The notes under the pieces were generated by a model. That model saw only the letters and a list, made by a program, of their open reading frames with translations, made no database searches and was not told where the DNA came from. The position numbers and the translations under genes are program-made. This document shows positions 55,878 to 64,000 of a stretch of DNA of 64,000 nucleotides, piece after piece (the first letter of the stretch is position 1; every line of letters begins with the position of its first letter). The stretch is from an uncultured Candidatus Saccharibacteria bacterium. GTDB taxonomy: Bacteria; Patescibacteriota; Minisyncoccia; 2-02-FULL-40-12; GWA2-44-9. The stretch spans positions 345,893 to 409,892 of the forward strand of contig CAZBFM010000001.1 of NCBI GenBank assembly GCA_964491455.1. The letters run 5' to 3'.

Positions 55878-56888
55878 CTACACAAACTCAGCGTCCGGCC
55901 AGGCCTGCGTCGCAATGCACTCACGAATGTCTTTGTCTGCTCTGAACCGCATGAACGCCGGCTCACGCAACTTCCCAGTCTTGGAGTAGCGGCGGACAAA
56001 GCGGACTTGAATCACCTTGTGAGTCCAGTCGTTCTTCGACAGTTCAGCACGCGTTTCAGAGTCGAACGAGCCCAGTCGCCCACAGGACATCAGCCGTCGA
56101 CCGGTCCGACGATCCGACGACGGATCTTCCTGAAGCAGCATGACGTCTTTGAGTGAGCCGTCTTCATTGAACCGTCTGCCATCGCTGTAGACAATGAAGT
56201 CATCTTCCAGAATTGGCTTGAGCTTGTAACAGCCCGCAGGTCGCGGAACTCCTCCTCCGATGCGCCAAGTCATCTGATAGTCGGCCTCATAGAGCACCAG
56301 CCCCTCCCAGTCGCCCTTACTGACAAGGGCGCGCATGTGCGAAAGCGGACCGGGCACCTCTTCGACGGCAGTGACATACTGCCCACCCCAGAACGTAGTG
56401 CGGAGCCACCGCAGAGTTCGATGATACGGCCACGAACTCAAGACGTATATCGGCGGGTGCATATGAAGCGCATTGAAGACGATCAGCCGTGGCACAATAC
56501 CGGTCGACAACATATCTCGTGCGCGATCCATTGAGGATCCGAGAAATGATGCAACGTACGACATGGCATCGTGACAATTTTCTGGTGCCTCAGAGTTTGC
56601 GATCTCCACCACTAGCTCGCCAATGAGCACGGTGCCAATGGGAAGTCGAAGCAAACGGATCTCGCCCCGAATGTAATCCAGGCGATGATCCATCTCTCGC
56701 ATGCCTGAACTGTACATGCGAATCGCATCGTCCTCACCAACGTGCACGAGCACCTTATGCCCATCACGCTTGCGGGTGCCAATGAGCGATCCGCGTGACT
56801 GCATCGCCTGAAGCATGTCGTACCGGTACTCGCCTTGCCCAATGGGCTTGGCAACAACGAAGTCGGCGCTCAATGGTCCATGAGACAT
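55878..56888 (-). CDS. Minimal ATP-dependent DNA ligase
   Basis: Motif I KRDGHK, motif IV EGLVLYE, motif V CYKLK, motif VI KLREPAFMRFRADKD. Confidence 0.7.
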   Translation of the reverse strand: MSHGPLSADFVVAKPIGQGEYRYDMLQAMQSRGSLIGTRKRDGHKVLVHVGEDDAIRMYSSGMREMDHRLDYIRGEIRLLRLPIGTVLIGELVVEIANSEAPENCHDAMSYVASFLGSSMDRARDMLSTGIVPRLIVFNALHMHPPIYVLSSWPYHRTLRWLRTTFWGGQYVTAVEEVPGPLSHMRALVSKGDWEGLVLYEADYQMTWRIGGGVPRPAGCYKLKPILEDDFIVYSDGRRFNEDGSLKDVMLLQEDPSSDRRTGRRLMSCGRLGSFDSETRAELSKNDWTHKVIQVRFVRRYSKTGKLREPAFMRFRADKDIRECIATQAWPDAEFV

Positions 56889-58267: not shown

Positions 58268-59584
58268 TTAATACGCAAATCGCTCGGAGTGGATTTGTTG
58301 CGATGGCACTCCAATACTTCGAAGCGACGCTATAATAGCATCCATCATAGGACCAGGACCGCACACGTACACGTCACGCTCTTTCACGTCACCTACGCAC
58401 TCCAGAATTGACTGGGCAGTGATCTGGCCCTGATGGAGATACGTACTCGACGGCACCGTTTCATCCGACAAAAAAACATGGGTACGCGGAACACGTGTAG
58501 CAATCTCAGAAAGCAACGCCGTATGAGCCTGCGAACGAGCGCCATACATCACCACCACGTCCCGCTCTTGCTTACCCAAGTCACCTGCCATTGCGCGCAC
58601 CGGAGTCACCCCGATACCGCCCCCGATCAACAAGAATTTATTCGTCCTCGCGACGCGCGGTGTAAACCTACCAAGCGGCCCATCAATAATCACACTCACG
58701 CCCGGCTTGAGATCGGCAATAAGCTTCGTGTCGTCTCCAAGAGATTTGATAGTAAATCGAAGCGTAACGCCATCATACTCCTGCGAAAAGGAGAATGGAT
58801 GCCCCGGCCAAAGACTTTTGGCTAAAAGATGAATATTAGCAAATTGACCTGACTCAAATCGAAATAACGCCATGTCGCGACCTGTTATATACACCGACCA
58901 CGCGTCTGGAGACTCCCGAACCACACGACTCACCACAAACCGGTGACGATACCACAGCGCAAATGGCCGAATGAATCGATACATCAGAAATACGCCCACC
59001 CCTACTGCATTCACGACATACCAATATGCGACGAACATCGACTGCGCAAAATCCCCTCCACTCTCGAGCTGATGTCCAAATGATAAGGCCATCGCAGCAT
59101 AGGTGAGTAAATGAATAAGATGCCACGACTCATATCGCAGTTTGCGGCGAACCCACGGGATGGATAATGCAATCACACCGTAGAGAAGAAGTGTCGCTCC
59201 GACAGCGGATAGTACATCTTCAAAACTGGTGACAAGGCTCACAAATGATGTCGGCGCAGCGACGCCAGATCGAGCTCCATATCCTACAGTCAACAACATA
59301 GGATGCGCAACAAGCAGCGCAACCAAAGAATATCCTAGCCAGCGATGGAATTGATTGAGTCGATCGTAGCCAAATGCCCGCTCGATGAACGTAATCCTGC
59401 CGATGAGTAACAATTGCAATACGAGCGCCCCCTGCAAAAGGAGCCCCGCGAGTCTGCCCAGGGCAATCGCAGGATTGCCACCTGTCCACGGAGAGCCCAT
59501 AAGAGGACCCGAATGTGCCCACCAAAAGAACGCCACAACTCCTATGTTGACCAGTACGCCAATCGTCAATAGGAATTTTTTCAT
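58268..59584 (-). CDS. Ferric reductase / NOX-like flavocytochrome (6-TM b-type heme domain plus FAD/NAD-binding domain)
   Basis: Paired His in the TM helices (HRWLGYSLVALLVAH; HLIHLLTYAAMALSFGH), HPFSFS FAD motif and LIGGGIGVTP NAD(P) motif. Confidence 0.7.
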   Translation of the reverse strand: MKKFLLTIGVLVNIGVVAFFWWAHSGPLMGSPWTGGNPAIALGRLAGLLLQGALVLQLLLIGRITFIERAFGYDRLNQFHRWLGYSLVALLVAHPMLLTVGYGARSGVAAPTSFVSLVTSFEDVLSAVGATLLLYGVIALSIPWVRRKLRYESWHLIHLLTYAAMALSFGHQLESGGDFAQSMFVAYWYVVNAVGVGVFLMYRFIRPFALWYRHRFVVSRVVRESPDAWSVYITGRDMALFRFESGQFANIHLLAKSLWPGHPFSFSQEYDGVTLRFTIKSLGDDTKLIADLKPGVSVIIDGPLGRFTPRVARTNKFLLIGGGIGVTPVRAMAGDLGKQERDVVVMYGARSQAHTALLSEIATRVPRTHVFLSDETVPSSTYLHQGQITAQSILECVGDVKERDVYVCGPGPMMDAIIASLRSIGVPSQQIHSERFAY

Positions 59585-59593
59585 ACGCGCAGC

Positions 59594-60049
59594 CTACTTC
59601 ACGACGACTCCAATCTTGAATGTCGCCAGGAGTTCCATTTGCTTCTGCTGCCCGCCGTGTTGATTCTGGAATGCTGACGTACCGTCGATGCCACAAATCT
59701 TGAAAATCGCGCGGTCACCGCCTGGATGCTTCGTGACAAATGCCGTGAGATCATAGACTGCGCCGCTAATTGCCGTATAGCAGTCGGCTTCGGTTTTATG
59801 CTGCGCGACCTGCGCCATCGTAAAGGTGGCGGCCTTCGGAGTGGCAGCTACTGAGACTGCTGGCGTCGGTGTTGGCGTTGCCTGAGGAGTCTCCGTCATC
59901 TGCGAGACAGGCGTAGGCGTCGCAACAACATCATCAACATCAGGTTTCGAAATAACAAAATATCCACCTATCGCTGCCAATAACACTACAAAAATAAGTA
60001 ATTTTTTCATACCGATACGATACCACGAAATAAAAAAGGAGGCGATCAC
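59594..60049 (-). CDS. Membrane-anchored cytochrome b5-like heme-binding domain protein
   Basis: N-terminal TM helix, PT-rich linker, then VTKHPGGDRAIFKICGIDGT (the HPGG motif). Confidence 0.6.
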   Translation of the reverse strand: MIASFFISWYRIGMKKLLIFVVLLAAIGGYFVISKPDVDDVVATPTPVSQMTETPQATPTPTPAVSVAATPKAATFTMAQVAQHKTEADCYTAISGAVYDLTAFVTKHPGGDRAIFKICGIDGTSAFQNQHGGQQKQMELLATFKIGVVVK

Positions 60050-60074
60050 GATACTCTGTGATCACCTCCTGGAC

Positions 60075-60329
60075 CTACGCCTCCGCGAAGAACTCCGAGG
60101 AGGGATGGTCGGACACCTCCTTGCGCTCGGGAATCGGCCACTCGTACGCCTTGCCCGCCGCGTCGTAGAGGCCACCGCGGGGATGCCGCTTCGTCACCTT
60201 GAGGGTGACGCGCACCTTGAAGCCGCCAGACCAGACCTCACCAGTCCCATCAGGACCGATGGTACCAAAGCAAGGAAGCAACTTCCCTGCGAGACGATTC
60301 CGACGTCGAGCCATAGACTCTCCCTTCAT
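60075..60329 (-). CDS. Small basic hypothetical protein
   Basis: ORF only. May start at MARRRNRL. Confidence 0.3.
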   Translation of the reverse strand: MKGESMARRRNRLAGKLLPCFGTIGPDGTGEVWSGGFKVRVTLKVTKRHPRGGLYDAAGKAYEWPIPERKEVSDHPSSEFFAEA

Positions 60330-60338
60330 GCTTCACCG

Positions 60339-60382
60339 AAATAGCAAAGCGTATATAAATAATAGCACCTTATTTGCTATTT
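60339..60382. promoter_or_regulatory. Operator-like repeats: AAATAGCAAA ... AATAGCA ... TTTGCTATTT (an inverted pair plus a third direct half-site)
   Basis: Read directly. AT-rich and located between the kinase-like gene stop and the small gene start. Confidence 0.35.
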
Positions 60383-60409
60383 GTCAATATCCCAACAACC
60401 CCGTGTAAT

Positions 60410-61732
60410 CTAGACATGTATCGGCCACTCTTCAATTTCATGATGAAGTAACGGGGCCAAGTTCTCGCCCTGCACGACCACGGAAGATAAAATCTTTCTC
60501 ATCCAGAGAGCTGCGGAAGTGCTATTCGTTTGCTGCTCCTGGAGCTTCGCGTGGTCTAGCTCACGTTCGAAACCATCCAGAAACGCGGTGGCGCATTCAT
60601 GGCGCGACCCAATATTCAATCCGGCCTGCCGTGCAGCTTTCAACAACATGCGAAGGCCATAGCAGGCATCGCGCATATCTTTTATATGACTTCGACGCAC
60701 ACCAGAGTAAAGCCGAATATTACCCGGCGTCTTCTCGTCGCGCCAATGAGAAATAGTGCCGACATCGGCTATCTCCGCAGCGAGCGTCACGTTAGCGGAA
60801 TGAAGATAGCCATGATCAAGACCAAGATTCAGAAGAATGGCAATATTCTTACCCATGCGCAAAAAAAATTCTTGAAAAAACATCTGCTCCTCCTCTCGAT
60901 TTCCTATTCGAAGTACAGGAAATGGAAGCTCTTTATCCTGTGACTCTTTGTTGAAAATTTCAAAAGCCCGTTCAAATAGCTGACGTCGACGCTCATCTGA
61001 TTGACTTGCTTCCGCGATGCGATTACTTACCTTAAACAATCGAACTACCTCGTACGGTACATAGTCAGCACGCGGAGAAATTACGCTCCTCCTTCGCAAC
61101 TCTTCGACTGGCATCATAGCGCCGTGGAACGGAAGACTACGCAACTCCACCATCCCCCAATACAGTTCAGTGCGTAATCCAGCAGCAATAAGTTCTTCTG
61201 ATTTTTCTATGAGCCTGCCGCCAGTCGCTTCTTCTCGGGAAATTAATCCAAGCACCTTATATCCCTGATCATTCACTCCCTCGTTATCAGGAATCGCCCA
61301 TGATGAATAGTGATCAAAATCAAGCCCCTTAGCAGACGGCTTTAAATAGCCAACCCCCTTCGTACTCACACCATAAAAGAATTCACGTCCAGTAGATGCA
61401 GACGTTCGATCCAACGCGACACTACTTTTCACATTATGATCATTCACTGCCCTCCAATGAGGGGCTTCGATCGTAAGTGATTTCGAGCCGGCATGAGGAT
61501 TAATAAATACTATAAAATCACTCAAGGATCGCTCGCAAGTGACATGTTCATTGCGCGCAATTACCTGAAAATCGGATCCTTCCGCGAGCGAAGAAAATCG
61601 TTCAATAGTATCGCGAATGCCCTCAATTTCGCGACCAGAAACTCCATCGAGCTCTTCGAGTGTTGGCTGCTGCGGACGCTCGTGAATCGCACCCTCGTTC
61701 ATGATTGTGATGTTGGCCAGGTACCGTGCCAC
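60410..61732 (-). CDS. Protein-kinase-like fold phosphotransferase (hypothetical)
   Basis: LDHGYLHSANVTL resembles the catalytic loop (HGDLHxxN) and IADVG resembles DFG. Confidence 0.4.
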   Translation of the reverse strand: MARYLANITIMNEGAIHERPQQPTLEELDGVSGREIEGIRDTIERFSSLAEGSDFQVIARNEHVTCERSLSDFIVFINPHAGSKSLTIEAPHWRAVNDHNVKSSVALDRTSASTGREFFYGVSTKGVGYLKPSAKGLDFDHYSSWAIPDNEGVNDQGYKVLGLISREEATGGRLIEKSEELIAAGLRTELYWGMVELRSLPFHGAMMPVEELRRRSVISPRADYVPYEVVRLFKVSNRIAEASQSDERRRQLFERAFEIFNKESQDKELPFPVLRIGNREEEQMFFQEFFLRMGKNIAILLNLGLDHGYLHSANVTLAAEIADVGTISHWRDEKTPGNIRLYSGVRRSHIKDMRDACYGLRMLLKAARQAGLNIGSRHECATAFLDGFERELDHAKLQEQQTNSTSAALWMRKILSSVVVQGENLAPLLHHEIEEWPIHV

Positions 61733-63993
61733 TGCTCCCTACCATCTTCATCTATCTCCCAAATTTTAACACATGGGACGCGTCCAAAGTGATCCCAAAT
61801 AGGATACGTATTAAAATTTGTTTCTGGTGTCGATTGTAGTCCAATTCGTGGACAATCAACAAAACGACGACGATACACATCAGATACGCTTTGACGATTC
61901 GTAGATGCCATACCTCGTTGATCCATAGGAATTGCTACGCACTGTCGCTGTTGCGCGAGGGGAAGACTCACTCCTGACGCTCGCCGCTCGTGCCACATTC
62001 GCCGTGCAGTCTCCACTGCCTCACGAAGCGTCGCAAGTACAAATTGATCTGCGTCAACTGATTGAATTAAATTTTCCACTGGATTATTCGCCCGCACTAC
62101 CAGCACTTCGGTTTGTCGGGCTGGCTGCTCTTCTGGTCGCGTATGCGCTTGAATTGCTAACACTGATCCCCGGCAACGCTCACGAGACGTTTGACGTCCG
62201 GTAACAAATATCCATGAGCGCAATGATTTATGCTGGCCATCGGCAAGCTCAAAATGGCGTTCCGTATGGCATGAGTCCCCGAGATCCCCCGAGTAAATAT
62301 TCAGAAGCCCGGAAACAGGAATCATGGCAACGGGTATGGTTTTAGTAGTGGGCTCACTGCTGATACCAAGAACACGGTCCATCTTTTTGACTAGTTTCGT
62401 AATCGGTAGATGCCCAGTTTGCACATCGAGTGTTTGCTGCCATGCCAAGGTTAATGCATCAAGCAGACGGTCAGAGAATGGTTTGTGCTCAGTATGATCT
62501 TCGTGTTGCACATAATGGAGATAATGCTCTTCCACATACTGCTTGGAGAGCTTGTGGAGATCTCGAACTGCATTCTCATCCAGCGACGAGCTCATACCCG
62601 TGACGACACTCCGCATCTCATCGGGCATAATGTCTAACATGTGCAACGCTGACAGCTCACGTAACTCTCGTGCCATCGGAAATCGCGAATGTAATTCTGC
62701 TAGTCGCTCAAGCGTCATCGGATATGCGCTATACGGCGCTATATGCACAAAATCCTTGCGAATCTGATCGATCGTCTCCCAGGCATCTCGCAAGGCAAGA
62801 CGCTTTTTCTCATACCCTTGTCGTCCACGAGGAGTCCGTAGAGCCTTCGCCGCGCTCCGGAGTTTCGTTCTCTGAGCATCAGTAAGTGCGTACTGCGCTG
62901 CGCGCTCGAGATCATCCGGAGTGCGATCCAGCAGTGAGGACAATTCCTTCGCCTCCAATTTCAAACTGTCTAATCGAGTATCAAACCAGTCACGAGCATA
63001 ATTCTTGCCCGCCACATTCCATGCCGACAAGAGCGGCTGGCAAACGTCCGCCACTTCCTGACTTGAAAAAAATGCCTGCAGGTCACGCTCCCCTTGATTC
63101 GTCAGCGGAGGTCGTTCACTTTGTTGAATCGGCACGCGAAGTTCCGACTCTCGAAATCCGATTGGCAAACGTCCGATTTCCGGATGCTTCGCAAGCGTTG
63201 CCTGCCACCGATGCACAACCTCGGCAAGACTATGATTTCGTCCAAATTGCGTCTCTCCTTTAATGCGATCGAACGACTCGGAGCCTAACTTGGACAACAG
63301 CTGATTTGGCACCTCATCGTGCAGTAATTGCGCCTGCATGAGGCCAAGACTTTTTGCAATTTCATTAAAAATTTCGAGTGACGCCTGAAATCGTAGCGAA
63401 CCGTCGTTGCGATACAGTCGTATCCCAAAATCTTCGCACAATCCTCGAATCCATTCGGGTAGCATAGCTGGATTTTCATTACGACGTATTTGTATGTACA
63501 GCGCAAAGAGGTTTTGCAGATTGTACATCCCAACCGCTTCGATGAAAGAAACCAAAAACTCCGCATCACGTGGATCGTCAAGTGTAATGATGCGCCGCTC
63601 AAAAGCCGATTCGAGTAATGGTTGCAGTTCTTGATCCCAGGGATTGTTGTCTACATTGGCAGAGATGGCCTGTACCTTCTCAAGGCGAACGATTGCCCGC
63701 ATCCAAGGATCTGAAAACGTTTTTTCCAATTGCACCTTTACCTCACCTGAAATTGCTCCCATCGCGGATCGCATCAAGGTGAGCCGACGAAAAACACCTT
63801 CAGGATGGTGCGTGAGTCTGCCGCGCAACTTATGCAACACGAAATCGCCATCCACTGCAATCTGCTTTTGTTCAATACGAGATATGACTTTTCGCAAGGT
63901 ATCGCTATGTTCATAATCAACCGCAGTTGCTAGCGCTGACGACAGCAGCTTACTCCAAAGATCTGGCGACTGAAACGCAGTTAAGCGCGCCAT
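61699..63993 (-). CDS. Large hypothetical protein (764 aa), co-operonic with the kinase-like gene
   Basis: Complete ORF with a 34-nt overlap with the downstream gene and no recognised motifs. Confidence 0.4.
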   Translation of the reverse strand: MARLTAFQSPDLWSKLLSSALATAVDYEHSDTLRKVISRIEQKQIAVDGDFVLHKLRGRLTHHPEGVFRRLTLMRSAMGAISGEVKVQLEKTFSDPWMRAIVRLEKVQAISANVDNNPWDQELQPLLESAFERRIITLDDPRDAEFLVSFIEAVGMYNLQNLFALYIQIRRNENPAMLPEWIRGLCEDFGIRLYRNDGSLRFQASLEIFNEIAKSLGLMQAQLLHDEVPNQLLSKLGSESFDRIKGETQFGRNHSLAEVVHRWQATLAKHPEIGRLPIGFRESELRVPIQQSERPPLTNQGERDLQAFFSSQEVADVCQPLLSAWNVAGKNYARDWFDTRLDSLKLEAKELSSLLDRTPDDLERAAQYALTDAQRTKLRSAAKALRTPRGRQGYEKKRLALRDAWETIDQIRKDFVHIAPYSAYPMTLERLAELHSRFPMARELRELSALHMLDIMPDEMRSVVTGMSSSLDENAVRDLHKLSKQYVEEHYLHYVQHEDHTEHKPFSDRLLDALTLAWQQTLDVQTGHLPITKLVKKMDRVLGISSEPTTKTIPVAMIPVSGLLNIYSGDLGDSCHTERHFELADGQHKSLRSWIFVTGRQTSRERCRGSVLAIQAHTRPEEQPARQTEVLVVRANNPVENLIQSVDADQFVLATLREAVETARRMWHERRASGVSLPLAQQRQCVAIPMDQRGMASTNRQSVSDVYRRRFVDCPRIGLQSTPETNFNTYPIWDHFGRVPCVKIWEIDEDGREQWHGTWPTSQS

Positions 63994-64000
63994 AGCCTCT

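Follow-up and report, generated by a model that had tools for sequence, protein, structure and literature searches.

The stretch of DNA analyzed here, which we call the window, comprises 64,000 nucleotides of an uncultured Candidatus Saccharibacteria bacterium (contig CAZBFM010000001.1 of GenBank assembly GCA_964491455.1, positions 345,893 to 409,892 of the forward strand). Close to its end, three genes follow one another on the minus strand: the rear part of a gene for a giant protein, a gene for a protein with a SelO/YdiU-like kinase fold, and a small gene for a basic orphan protein (Table 1). An earlier note, made from the sequence alone, had taken them for one compact operon of a large protein, a kinase and a small protein. 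We arrive at a different division, in which the giant and the SelO-like protein belong together and the small gene stands apart. On balance we favor, as reasonably probable, the reading that the SelO-like protein belongs, as a very distant relative, to the SelO/YdiU/MchC branch within the superfamily of protein-kinase-like proteins, that it transfers nucleoside monophosphates (NMPs) or forms adenylates, and that the giant protein is its partner.

Table 1. Features of the locus and of related loci. Positions are those of the window unless a locus handle (L) is given; L001 is a 12-kb public contig identical to the window.
Feature	Position	Strand	Basis
SelO/YdiU-like kinase-fold gene, 430 aa	60410..61702	(-)	homologue N-termini and public gene call; the longest open reading frame, to GTG at 61732, has 440 aa
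T-K125-G-V-G-Y-L-K131, proposed equivalent of the SelO β3 lysine motif (E. coli WHLK-GAG)	61340..61360	(-)	motif comparison
R231...R238 pair, proposed equivalent of SelO Arg176/Arg183	61019..61042	(-)	same 7-residue spacing
Catalytic loop and DFG equivalent LDHGYLHSANVTLAAEIADVG, with metal ligands N314 and D323	60758..60817	(-)	hhalign against E. coli SelO
ATGA overlap of the giant gene's TGA stop and the SelO-like gene's ATG start	61699..61702	(-)	direct sequence reading
Giant gene, part in the window (C-terminal 764 codons and stop)	61699..64000	(-)	open reading frame scan and public protein match
C-terminal domain shared by the giant proteins (final ∼270 aa), with motifs SGDLGDSC, VVRANNPVEN, AIPMD...STNR, ETNFNTY	61702..62511	(-)	pairwise comparison of partner proteins
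Frame change beside the GAAAAAATTTTTC run	L001 7100-7170, about 620-660 nt past the window end at 64000		tblastn continuity across the break
Small basic orphan gene, 79 aa	60075..60314	(-)	start at the ATG kept in L086; the first ATG, at 60329, would give 84 aa
Spacer with the small gene's promoter	60330..60409	(-)	-35 TTGACA at 60387-60382; extended -10 TGcTATTAT ending at 60359
Intrinsic terminator after the small gene, 13-bp stem and T-run	60037..60070	(-)	terminator scan; conserved in L086
Peptidase S51 genes	L001 4546-5307; L002 374-1141; L011 9183-10001; L020 11259-12149; L024 2513-3304 and 8231-9058; L030 3268-4128

Fold and placement of the SelO-like protein

The gene of the kinase-like protein was first described as a 440-aa open reading frame (ORF) that overlaps the large gene by 34 nt. 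An ORF of this extent is present at 60410-61732 (-), but its start is the GTG of the longest reading frame. Because homologue N-termini and the public gene call both favor the ATG at 61702, we place the start there, which gives a protein of 430 aa. The 34-nt overlap is thus an artifact of the GTG start and shrinks to the four nucleotides ATGA, an arrangement that suggests translational coupling of the giant and SelO-like genes.

The earlier note could not assign the cluster to any described family, and at the level of sequence neither the large nor the kinase-like protein finds one in Pfam, NCBIfam, PADLOC or PHROGs. Scans of the 430-aa protein against these collections returned nothing, including Pfam at E <= 1, and PDB searches with the single sequence and with a profile found no match. 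A homologue search recovered 45 clusters, and all those with a named source are hypothetical proteins of Patescibacteria.

The structure was more informative. An AlphaFold2 model of the 430-aa protein, computed with the homologue alignment as input, reached a predicted local distance difference test (pLDDT) score of 90.8 and a predicted template modeling score of 0.89. In a Foldseek search of the PDB the top nine matches were all YdiU/SelO structures, aligned over nearly the full length with E values of 2e-8 to 2e-6 and a probability of 1.00, and canonical kinases followed from rank 10 with E >= 4e-5. The protein-kinase-like catalytic loop (DHGYLHSANV) and the DFG-like IADVG motif that had been noticed by eye lie at residues 306-325 of the 440-aa ORF, and both the kinase-like fold and the profile alignment agree with that assignment. 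In this alignment, made with hhalign in local mode (global mode was not successful), the family profile matched Escherichia coli SelO without a gap from the catalytic loop to the GRYS motif, with a pairwise E value of 1.5e-3 for 36 sequences and 4.7e-4 for 56 sequences. Pfam SelO was also the most recurrent weak match among the relatives (3 of 36, best E 0.003). The 430-aa protein is too divergent for membership in Pfam SelO.

Conserved residues and predicted chemistry

Overall identity in the family falls to about 34%, and K125, G126, G128, R187, R231, R238, N296, N314, E320 and D323 are invariant in all 55 non-identical relatives, divergent metagenomic ones included. The hhalign comparison places N314 on the metal-binding N247 of E. 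coli SelO and D323 on D256, the Asp of its DYG motif. The Asn-to-Asp spacing of 9 residues is specific to SelO, while the motif itself reads D-[VI]-G in our family and D-[YF]-G in SelO. H307 and G308 align with H240 and G241 of the SelO HGV motif, the equivalent of HRD, and the position of the HRD Asp holds Gly or Tyr, so that the kinase catalytic Asp is absent, as it is in SelO. A313 is aligned with E. coli SelO D246, a position occupied by Ala or Ser in 51 of the 55 relatives. The roles of the SelO residues and the absence of the kinase catalytic Asp in SelO have been described previously (PMC3281104).

Two further elements can be proposed from motif spacing in the N-lobe. The Lys-Gly-x-Gly stretch around K125 would correspond to the β3 lysine motif WHLK-GAG of E. 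coli SelO (PMC12599244). The pair R231/R238 would correspond to Arg176 and Arg183 of Pseudomonas syringae SelO, which hold the γ-phosphate of the flipped ATP (PMC8097203); the arginine spacing is identical in the RVAPSHLR motif of E. coli SelO. For the αC Glu, E189 in the motif G-L-R-T-E (54 of 55 relatives) might serve as a stand-in.

From these residues and the modeled fold we conclude that the protein is predicted to be an active enzyme of the SelO superfamily, and very probably an NMP or adenylate transferase rather than a phosphotransferase. NMP or adenylate transfer is expected because the lysine of the Lys-Gly-x-Gly motif, the arginine pair, the Asn and the DxG Asp are all kept and the kinase Asp is absent. 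The enzyme would bind ATP (or UTP) with the phosphates buried as in SelO, and would then transfer the nucleoside monophosphate to a target, or form an adenylate, instead of phosphorylating.

The label of kinase originally given to the protein is therefore probably misplaced, since the catalytic Asp of kinases is absent and NMP transferases of the SelO/YdiU type head the list of fold matches. We nevertheless weighed a true phosphotransferase that signals to the giant protein or phosphorylates it, whether as a kinase of Ser/Thr/Tyr residues in proteins or as one of small molecules. The kinase-like fold, with canonical kinases entering the Foldseek list at rank 10, and the invariant Lys, Asn and DxG Asp for ATP and Mg binding are compatible with such an enzyme, and some kinases do function without the HRD Asp (discussed in PMC3281104). 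Besides the missing catalytic Asp and the Ala or Ser at position 313, however, the protein has no GxGxxG loop, its Asn and Asp are 9 residues apart as in SelO and not 13 as in PKA, its nine best structural matches are NMP transferases, and the only recurrent Pfam match in the family is SelO and not Pkinase, APH or ChoK. We regard a true kinase as quite unlikely.

The conservation pattern also bears on the idea that the protein has no catalytic activity and, as a true pseudokinase, is a scaffold that only binds the giant protein. This would fit the loss of the HRD Asp and of a conserved αC Glu at the motif-aligned position, but a dead scaffold would not be expected to keep every SelO-type nucleotide- and metal-binding residue invariant in all 55 relatives despite their low identity, and we consider it highly improbable.

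The giant partner protein

The large gene had been reported as coding for a 764-aa protein with no recognizable domain. An ORF of this length does lie at 61699-63993 (-), and it has no Pfam domain, but 764 aa is not the full size of the protein, because the edge of the window cuts the ORF. We take the ORF to be truncated by the window since no stop codon occurs upstream of its ATG before the window end and since a public protein with 100% identity (P0046, encoded on a 652-kb Patescibacteria contig) gives the full ORF as 944 aa. This identical 944-aa protein was the sole database match in a word-indexed homologue search with the 764-aa ORF, and homologues of the giant protein were collected through the neighboring genes of the kinase-like relatives and through alignment of the C-terminal domain.

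The 944-aa ORF is itself the rear part of a giant gene of ∼1,510 codons, because a 566-aa ORF lies 26 nt upstream of it on L001 and because homology continues across the frame change between the two. The 566-aa ORF matches the N-terminal ∼540 residues of single proteins of 1,507 to 1,552 aa in relatives, and tblastn homology to intact orthologues of ∼1,500 aa runs on across the frame change, which sits beside an A6T5 run (GAAAAAATTTTTC). The break may reflect a true frameshift or pseudogene, a mistake in the assembly, or a site of slippage.

Two proteins encoded beside kinase-like genes elsewhere, of 1,474 and 1,971 aa, share 36% and 35% identity, respectively, with the large protein. About 700 to 1,000 residues are common to the closest relatives, and the body of the giant protein is variable. 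No transmembrane segments were predicted in the giant proteins, and no known domains were found in the 34 members of the family that were scanned; the extra domains of atypical members are only sigma-70/LuxR read-through. The giant protein is soluble, mostly α-helical and ∼1,500 aa long.

The conserved C-terminal domain

In pairwise comparison the last ∼200 to 270 residues are the only region common to all partner giant proteins. The invariant residues of this domain fall into four motifs, S-G-x-x-x-D-x-C, R-x-x-N-P-x-x-N, (T/S)-N-R and F-N-x-Y. When 1.84 billion cluster representatives were searched with a profile, 909 proteins (clusters at 50% identity) were retrieved, and in this survey the domain nearly always stands at the C-terminus of proteins of 600 to 1,700 aa. 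In a few very long proteins (P0187, P0206 and P0211; 5,800 to 7,200 aa) it is internal, an arrangement that may come from fused or read-through gene models or from architectures that are truly larger.

Members of the domain family have no match in Pfam, neither to its acetyltransferase models nor to HlyC (PF02794). Sequence and profile searches of the PDB with the tail of the giant protein brought up only apolipoprotein-type coiled-coil noise. The AlphaFold2 model of the domain has a pLDDT of 65.7 overall and about 80 in its core. Its elements follow the order β-α-β-β-β-α-β-α-β, as in GNAT acyltransferases, and the R-x-x-N-P-x-x-N loop lies at the junction of β4 and α3, where GNATs bind the pyrophosphate of their cofactor. 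A Foldseek search of the PDB placed the GNAT toxins KacT, AtaT and TacT in the top 13 positions, with a best E value of 4.6e-3, which is not significant. At lower ranks followed other proteins of GNAT fold, namely AAC(6'), Eis, malonyl-CoA decarboxylase and tubulin acetyltransferase, and a viral structure library gave results that were likewise GNAT-flavored and below significance. A GNAT-like acyltransferase fold is probable for this domain, though not established.

Linkage of the two genes

The proposal that the large and the kinase-like protein are linked is confirmed by conserved adjacency in many Patescibacteria genomes. In the first related loci inspected, the kinase-like gene always had as its neighbor a very large ORF (1,474, 1,971, 1,844 and 884 aa) in which Pfam recognized no domain. 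A scan of GTDB species representatives added 20 loci, and in a hidden Markov model survey of the C-terminal domain around kinase-like genes, an ORF with the domain adjoined the kinase-like gene in at least 17 of ∼20 distinct loci. The giant ORF is mostly upstream on the same strand, separated by no more than 60 nt or overlapping; in two cases it is downstream and in two the genes are convergent. No other family of neighboring genes recurs comparably. In the reverse direction, of 55 metagenomic loci that encode the domain, only 6 to 7 also had a kinase-like gene. The giant and SelO-like genes are a two-gene module specific to Patescibacteria, in which the SelO-like enzyme is an accessory tied to a subset of a large giant-protein family. 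Our literature searches turned up no description of a module that joins a giant protein to a SelO-like enzyme.

An enzyme of this type could also modify proteins elsewhere in the cell, as is the case for E. coli YdiU/SelO under stress, the giant gene being only a conserved or co-regulated neighbor. Known SelO/YdiU proteins do have many cellular targets and no dedicated partner (PMC8097203), most giant-family proteins occur without the enzyme, and some loci have intervening genes or a convergent pair. Such a reading would nevertheless have to account for adjacency that persists while the kinase-like proteins are only 34 to 60% identical and the remaining neighbors are wholly different, for a stop/start overlap that suggests stoichiometric co-expression, and for the lack of any other gene family that recurs to a similar degree. 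We think that it is unlikely and retain the giant protein as the proposed partner of the enzyme.

Three observations on the composition of related loci can be added. In six loci of the closest clade, this genome included, a peptidase S51 gene (dipeptidase E/cyanophycinase family) adjoins the giant and SelO-like genes or separates them, and it may act as a third partner. One genome encodes two giant paralogues in tandem, of 1,399 and 1,474 aa (L002 1282-5481 and 5567-9991), both with the C-terminal domain, upstream of a single SelO-like gene. In another locus (L006 8185-19483) the pair occurs in reversed order within a type IV pilus cluster that encodes a PilB-like ATPase, a PilC-like platform protein, a prepilin peptidase and several pilins.

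The small gene and its promoter

The third gene was described as coding for an 84-aa basic protein. The ORF is present at 60075-60329 (-) and its product has a net charge of about +5, but the start is most likely the second ATG, at 60314, which gives 79 aa, because of the two candidate starts a related contig (L086) retains this one alone, together with its AAGGAG ribosome-binding site. The only relative of the small protein (P0073, ∼90% identical) is encoded on L086, a contig from another sample, where the small gene comes after a DUF3977 gene and is followed by the same cytochrome-b5 gene as here. Conservation between the two sequences extends to the hexamers of the promoter, the ribosome-binding site, the second ATG and the terminator, and the coding differences are mostly synonymous. 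No homologue of the small protein was found at any other kinase-like locus. Searches of Pfam, NCBIfam, PADLOC, the PDB and phage and plasmid collections gave no match, and PHROGs gave only a chance-level one (a family of unknown function, E 0.072).

We rejected a structured RNA as an explanation for the small gene. Rfam had no match, the fold z-score of -3.0 comes partly from the terminator, and the mostly synonymous substitutions favor a protein. The gene coincides with a local peak in G+C content (63 to 63.5% at 60100-60300, against about 49% in the flanks) and this peak, together with a portable promoter and terminator, suggests possible acquisition or relocation of the gene as a cassette.

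The promoter in the spacer is of near-consensus sigma-70 type, with 11 of 12 matches, a 17-nt spacer between the hexamers and a TG upstream of TATTAT. The three AATAGCA half-sites that had been pointed out at 60339-60382 are there: a 10-nt inverted repeat (60339-60348/60373-60382) and a third AATAGCA at 60361-60367. When the 80-nt spacer was shuffled with its composition preserved, an inverted repeat of such length turned up in 0.18% of the shuffles (P about 0.002), and 5 of 1,598 80-nt segments of the whole sequence contain one, while the AATAGCA 7-mer itself is not enriched in the window (12 found against 8.7 expected). In L086 the outer 10-nt repeat is lost, and an inner repeat of 6 to 7 nt is kept through a compensatory G:C to A:T double change. 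As a terminator of the kinase-like gene the 10-nt repeat was discarded, with its AU-rich stem, its 24-nt loop, no T-run and no flag in the terminator scan.

One arm of the repeat abuts the -35 hexamer and the other lies just downstream of the -10, so the repeat overlaps the promoter of the small gene, and the putative operator therefore belongs to this gene and not to the enzyme pair. The small gene is possibly repressor-controlled. It is a real and self-contained transcription unit, unrelated to the enzyme pair. The three-gene operon of the earlier note does not stand, since the small gene has no homologue at other loci, follows a DUF3977 gene in L086 and has its own promoter and terminator. 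That operon with its own operator merged two unrelated transcription units, and its large ORF was the edge-truncated fragment of a frameshifted gene.

Defense or lineage-specific biology

The architecture had also been likened to that of uncharacterized defense or signaling systems. Our searches pointed neither to a defense context nor to one of ribosomally synthesized and post-translationally modified peptides. None of the three proteins had a match in PADLOC at E <= 1, no relatives were found on viral contigs, and no defense genes recurred in the neighborhood of related loci, where the neighbors vary and include ribosomal protein, tRNA-synthetase and type IV pilus genes. The distribution of the module looks like lineage-specific core biology.

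An anti-phage or toxin-antitoxin-like system can still be imagined, in which a GNAT-type toxin domain is controlled by the kinase-like protein and the small protein acts as regulator or antitoxin through the repeat. Such a system would draw on the GNAT toxins that head the fold matches of the C-terminal domain, on the basic small protein and its promoter repeat, which is unlikely by chance, and on one related locus with an SLFN-like helicase and MazG nearby. The toxin matches are, however, statistically non-significant, and the small gene is absent at every other locus and stands after a different gene in L086. The PADLOC and viral searches and the often housekeeping character of the neighbors argue in the same direction, and a domain found in 909 clusters, with two tandem paralogues in one genome, is more in keeping with core biology of the lineage than with a mobile island. 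We judge a defense role to be very unlikely, and return to the enzyme and its giant partner below.

Neighboring genes

The neighbors of the pair in the window encode cytochrome b5, ferric reductase, CapA and XseA, and the genes upstream encode peptidase S51 and CofD. The first two occupy 58268-60049 (-), where a membrane ferric-reductase-like flavoprotein (Ferric_reduct, FAD_binding_8 and NAD_binding_1) is followed by a secreted or anchored protein with a cytochrome b5 domain. This is an unusual redox pair for a Patescibacteria genome, and the b5 gene still adjoins the small orphan gene in L086. Next to xseA, a 336-aa ORF with no Pfam match (55878-56888 (-)) has a K-R-D-G stretch reminiscent of KxDG, the motif for adenylation in ATP-dependent ligases, and to judge from this stretch it may encode a divergent ligase.

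Proposed function

We propose that the SelO-like enzyme would act on or with the C-terminal domain of the giant protein, because the linkage of the two is asymmetric: the enzyme is almost never without a giant protein, and most giant proteins are without the enzyme. Fold, conserved residues, linkage and overlap of the genes are demonstrated by the analysis, while the binding of a flipped nucleotide, the transfer of NMP, a physical partnership and the nature of the substrate are inferred. The proposed action could take two forms. The enzyme might nucleotidylate the C-terminal domain and thereby regulate it. Alternatively, it might be the ATP-activating subunit of a two-part ligase, in the manner of MceJ/MchC with the HlyC-type proteins MceI/MchD. 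HlyC-type enzymes have a GNAT-type fold.

Several points weigh against this interpretation. Sequence methods never place the family above the threshold of Pfam PF02696, and the protein of the window has no match at all, although MchC, an accepted distant SelO member that we used as a control, likewise lacks a Pfam SelO match. The Foldseek template modeling scores to SelO are only about 0.4. The N-lobe equivalences, K125 and R231/R238, lie outside the automated alignment and are suggested by motif spacing, and E179, the residue that is motif-aligned with the αC Glu of SelO, varies among the 55 relatives. For the C-terminal domain, the GNAT assignment derives from a mediocre model and from Foldseek matches short of significance, and the canonical GNAT motif A, Q/R-x-x-G-x-G/A, is absent, with the invariant R-x-x-N-P-x-x-N at the equivalent position. 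In hhalign comparisons with MchC and MchD no similarity could be detected (E > 0.2 for both). Adjacency demonstrates co-inheritance and does not by itself establish a physical or enzymatic relation, and no fusion of the kinase-like and C-terminal domains was seen among 216 proteins. Finally, the frameshift in the giant gene may mean that the module is undergoing decay in this particular genome.

SelO-type pseudokinases have widened the view of what the kinase fold can do, from AMPylation and UMPylation to RNAylation (NiRAN) and, more recently, NAD hydrolysis. Next to YdiU and MchC, the family described here would form the third deep branch in bacteria, and one that is invisible to Pfam. Its genetically coupled partner is an obvious candidate for a substrate or co-enzyme, something that classical SelO lacks. 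Giant proteins of unknown function are an old puzzle of the reduced genomes of Patescibacteria, and an enzyme tied to the tail of one such family offers a concrete way in.

Comparison with known systems

SelO/YdiU proteins (PF02696; PDB 6eac, 6k20 and 6iii) are the best structural matches of the 430-aa protein. Both lack the kinase catalytic Asp and have a metal-binding Asn with D-x-G 9 residues further on, and by motif comparison they would also share the K-G-x-G lysine motif and two arginines 7 residues apart before the hinge. In contrast to SelO, the catalytic loop of our family reads H-S-A/S-N and not N-T-D-N, and the C-terminal Cys/Sec motif is missing. The family is also confined to Patescibacteria and has a dedicated giant partner, which SelO/YdiU proteins lack.

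In coronaviruses, the NiRAN domain of nsp12 is described as a SelO-like kinase fold that transfers NMP to a co-encoded partner protein (PMC8017715). The parallel, drawn from this description, is that of a SelO-like kinase-fold domain with a partner encoded alongside, whereas the viral domain is fused to the polymerase.

The GNAT toxins KacT, AtaT and TacT resemble the C-terminal domain in the order of their elements, as the top Foldseek matches, and in an invariant Tyr of the domain near its C-terminal end, where the toxins have their catalytic Tyr (a position that we read from the mutant names Y145F and Y144F among the matches). Unlike these toxins, the domain has an invariant Cys in S-G-x-x-x-D-x-C, carries R-x-x-N-P-x-x-N in place of motif A and has no antitoxin-like partner.

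The closest analogue, and the sole precedent in the literature for the pairing of a SelO-like protein with an acyltransferase, is MchCD/MceIJ, the machinery that matures siderophore-microcins. In these systems MchC/MceJ, which form a distant SelO subfamily, work in complex with the adjacent HlyC-type acyltransferase MchD/MceI, and microcins H47 and E492 thereby receive glycosylated enterobactin at their C-terminus (PMC3281104; PMC7472721). For our comparisons the MchC and MchD sequences were taken from E. coli CFT073, MchD being of the HlyC family. As at the locus studied here, a gene of the SelO superfamily is adjacent to a putative acyltransferase-fold domain, although the fold of the partner is weakly supported in our case. 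By inspection of its sequence, MchC has VKGIG and S-N...D-F motifs with an Asn-to-Asp spacing of 9, and it too escapes Pfam SelO. The acyltransferase-like domain of our system is, however, the tail of a ∼1,500-aa protein, whereas MchD is a protein of 150 aa. The nearby genes include no microcin precursor, ABC exporter, glycosyltransferase or esterase, and the host belongs to another phylum. Because no sequence similarity is detectable, the likeness to MchCD is one of architecture and fold and not of family membership.

By analogy with MchCD/MceIJ, the pair could be a two-component, ATP-dependent protein-modifying machine, in which the SelO-like enzyme would adenylate a carboxylate or hydroxyl and the GNAT-like domain would either pass the activated group on or take it up on the invariant Cys. 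We put this forward tentatively, as possible rather than probable. If true, the module would be a Patescibacteria counterpart of MceIJ built on a giant helical scaffold, and would provide the first biochemical handle on a family of ∼900 clusters.

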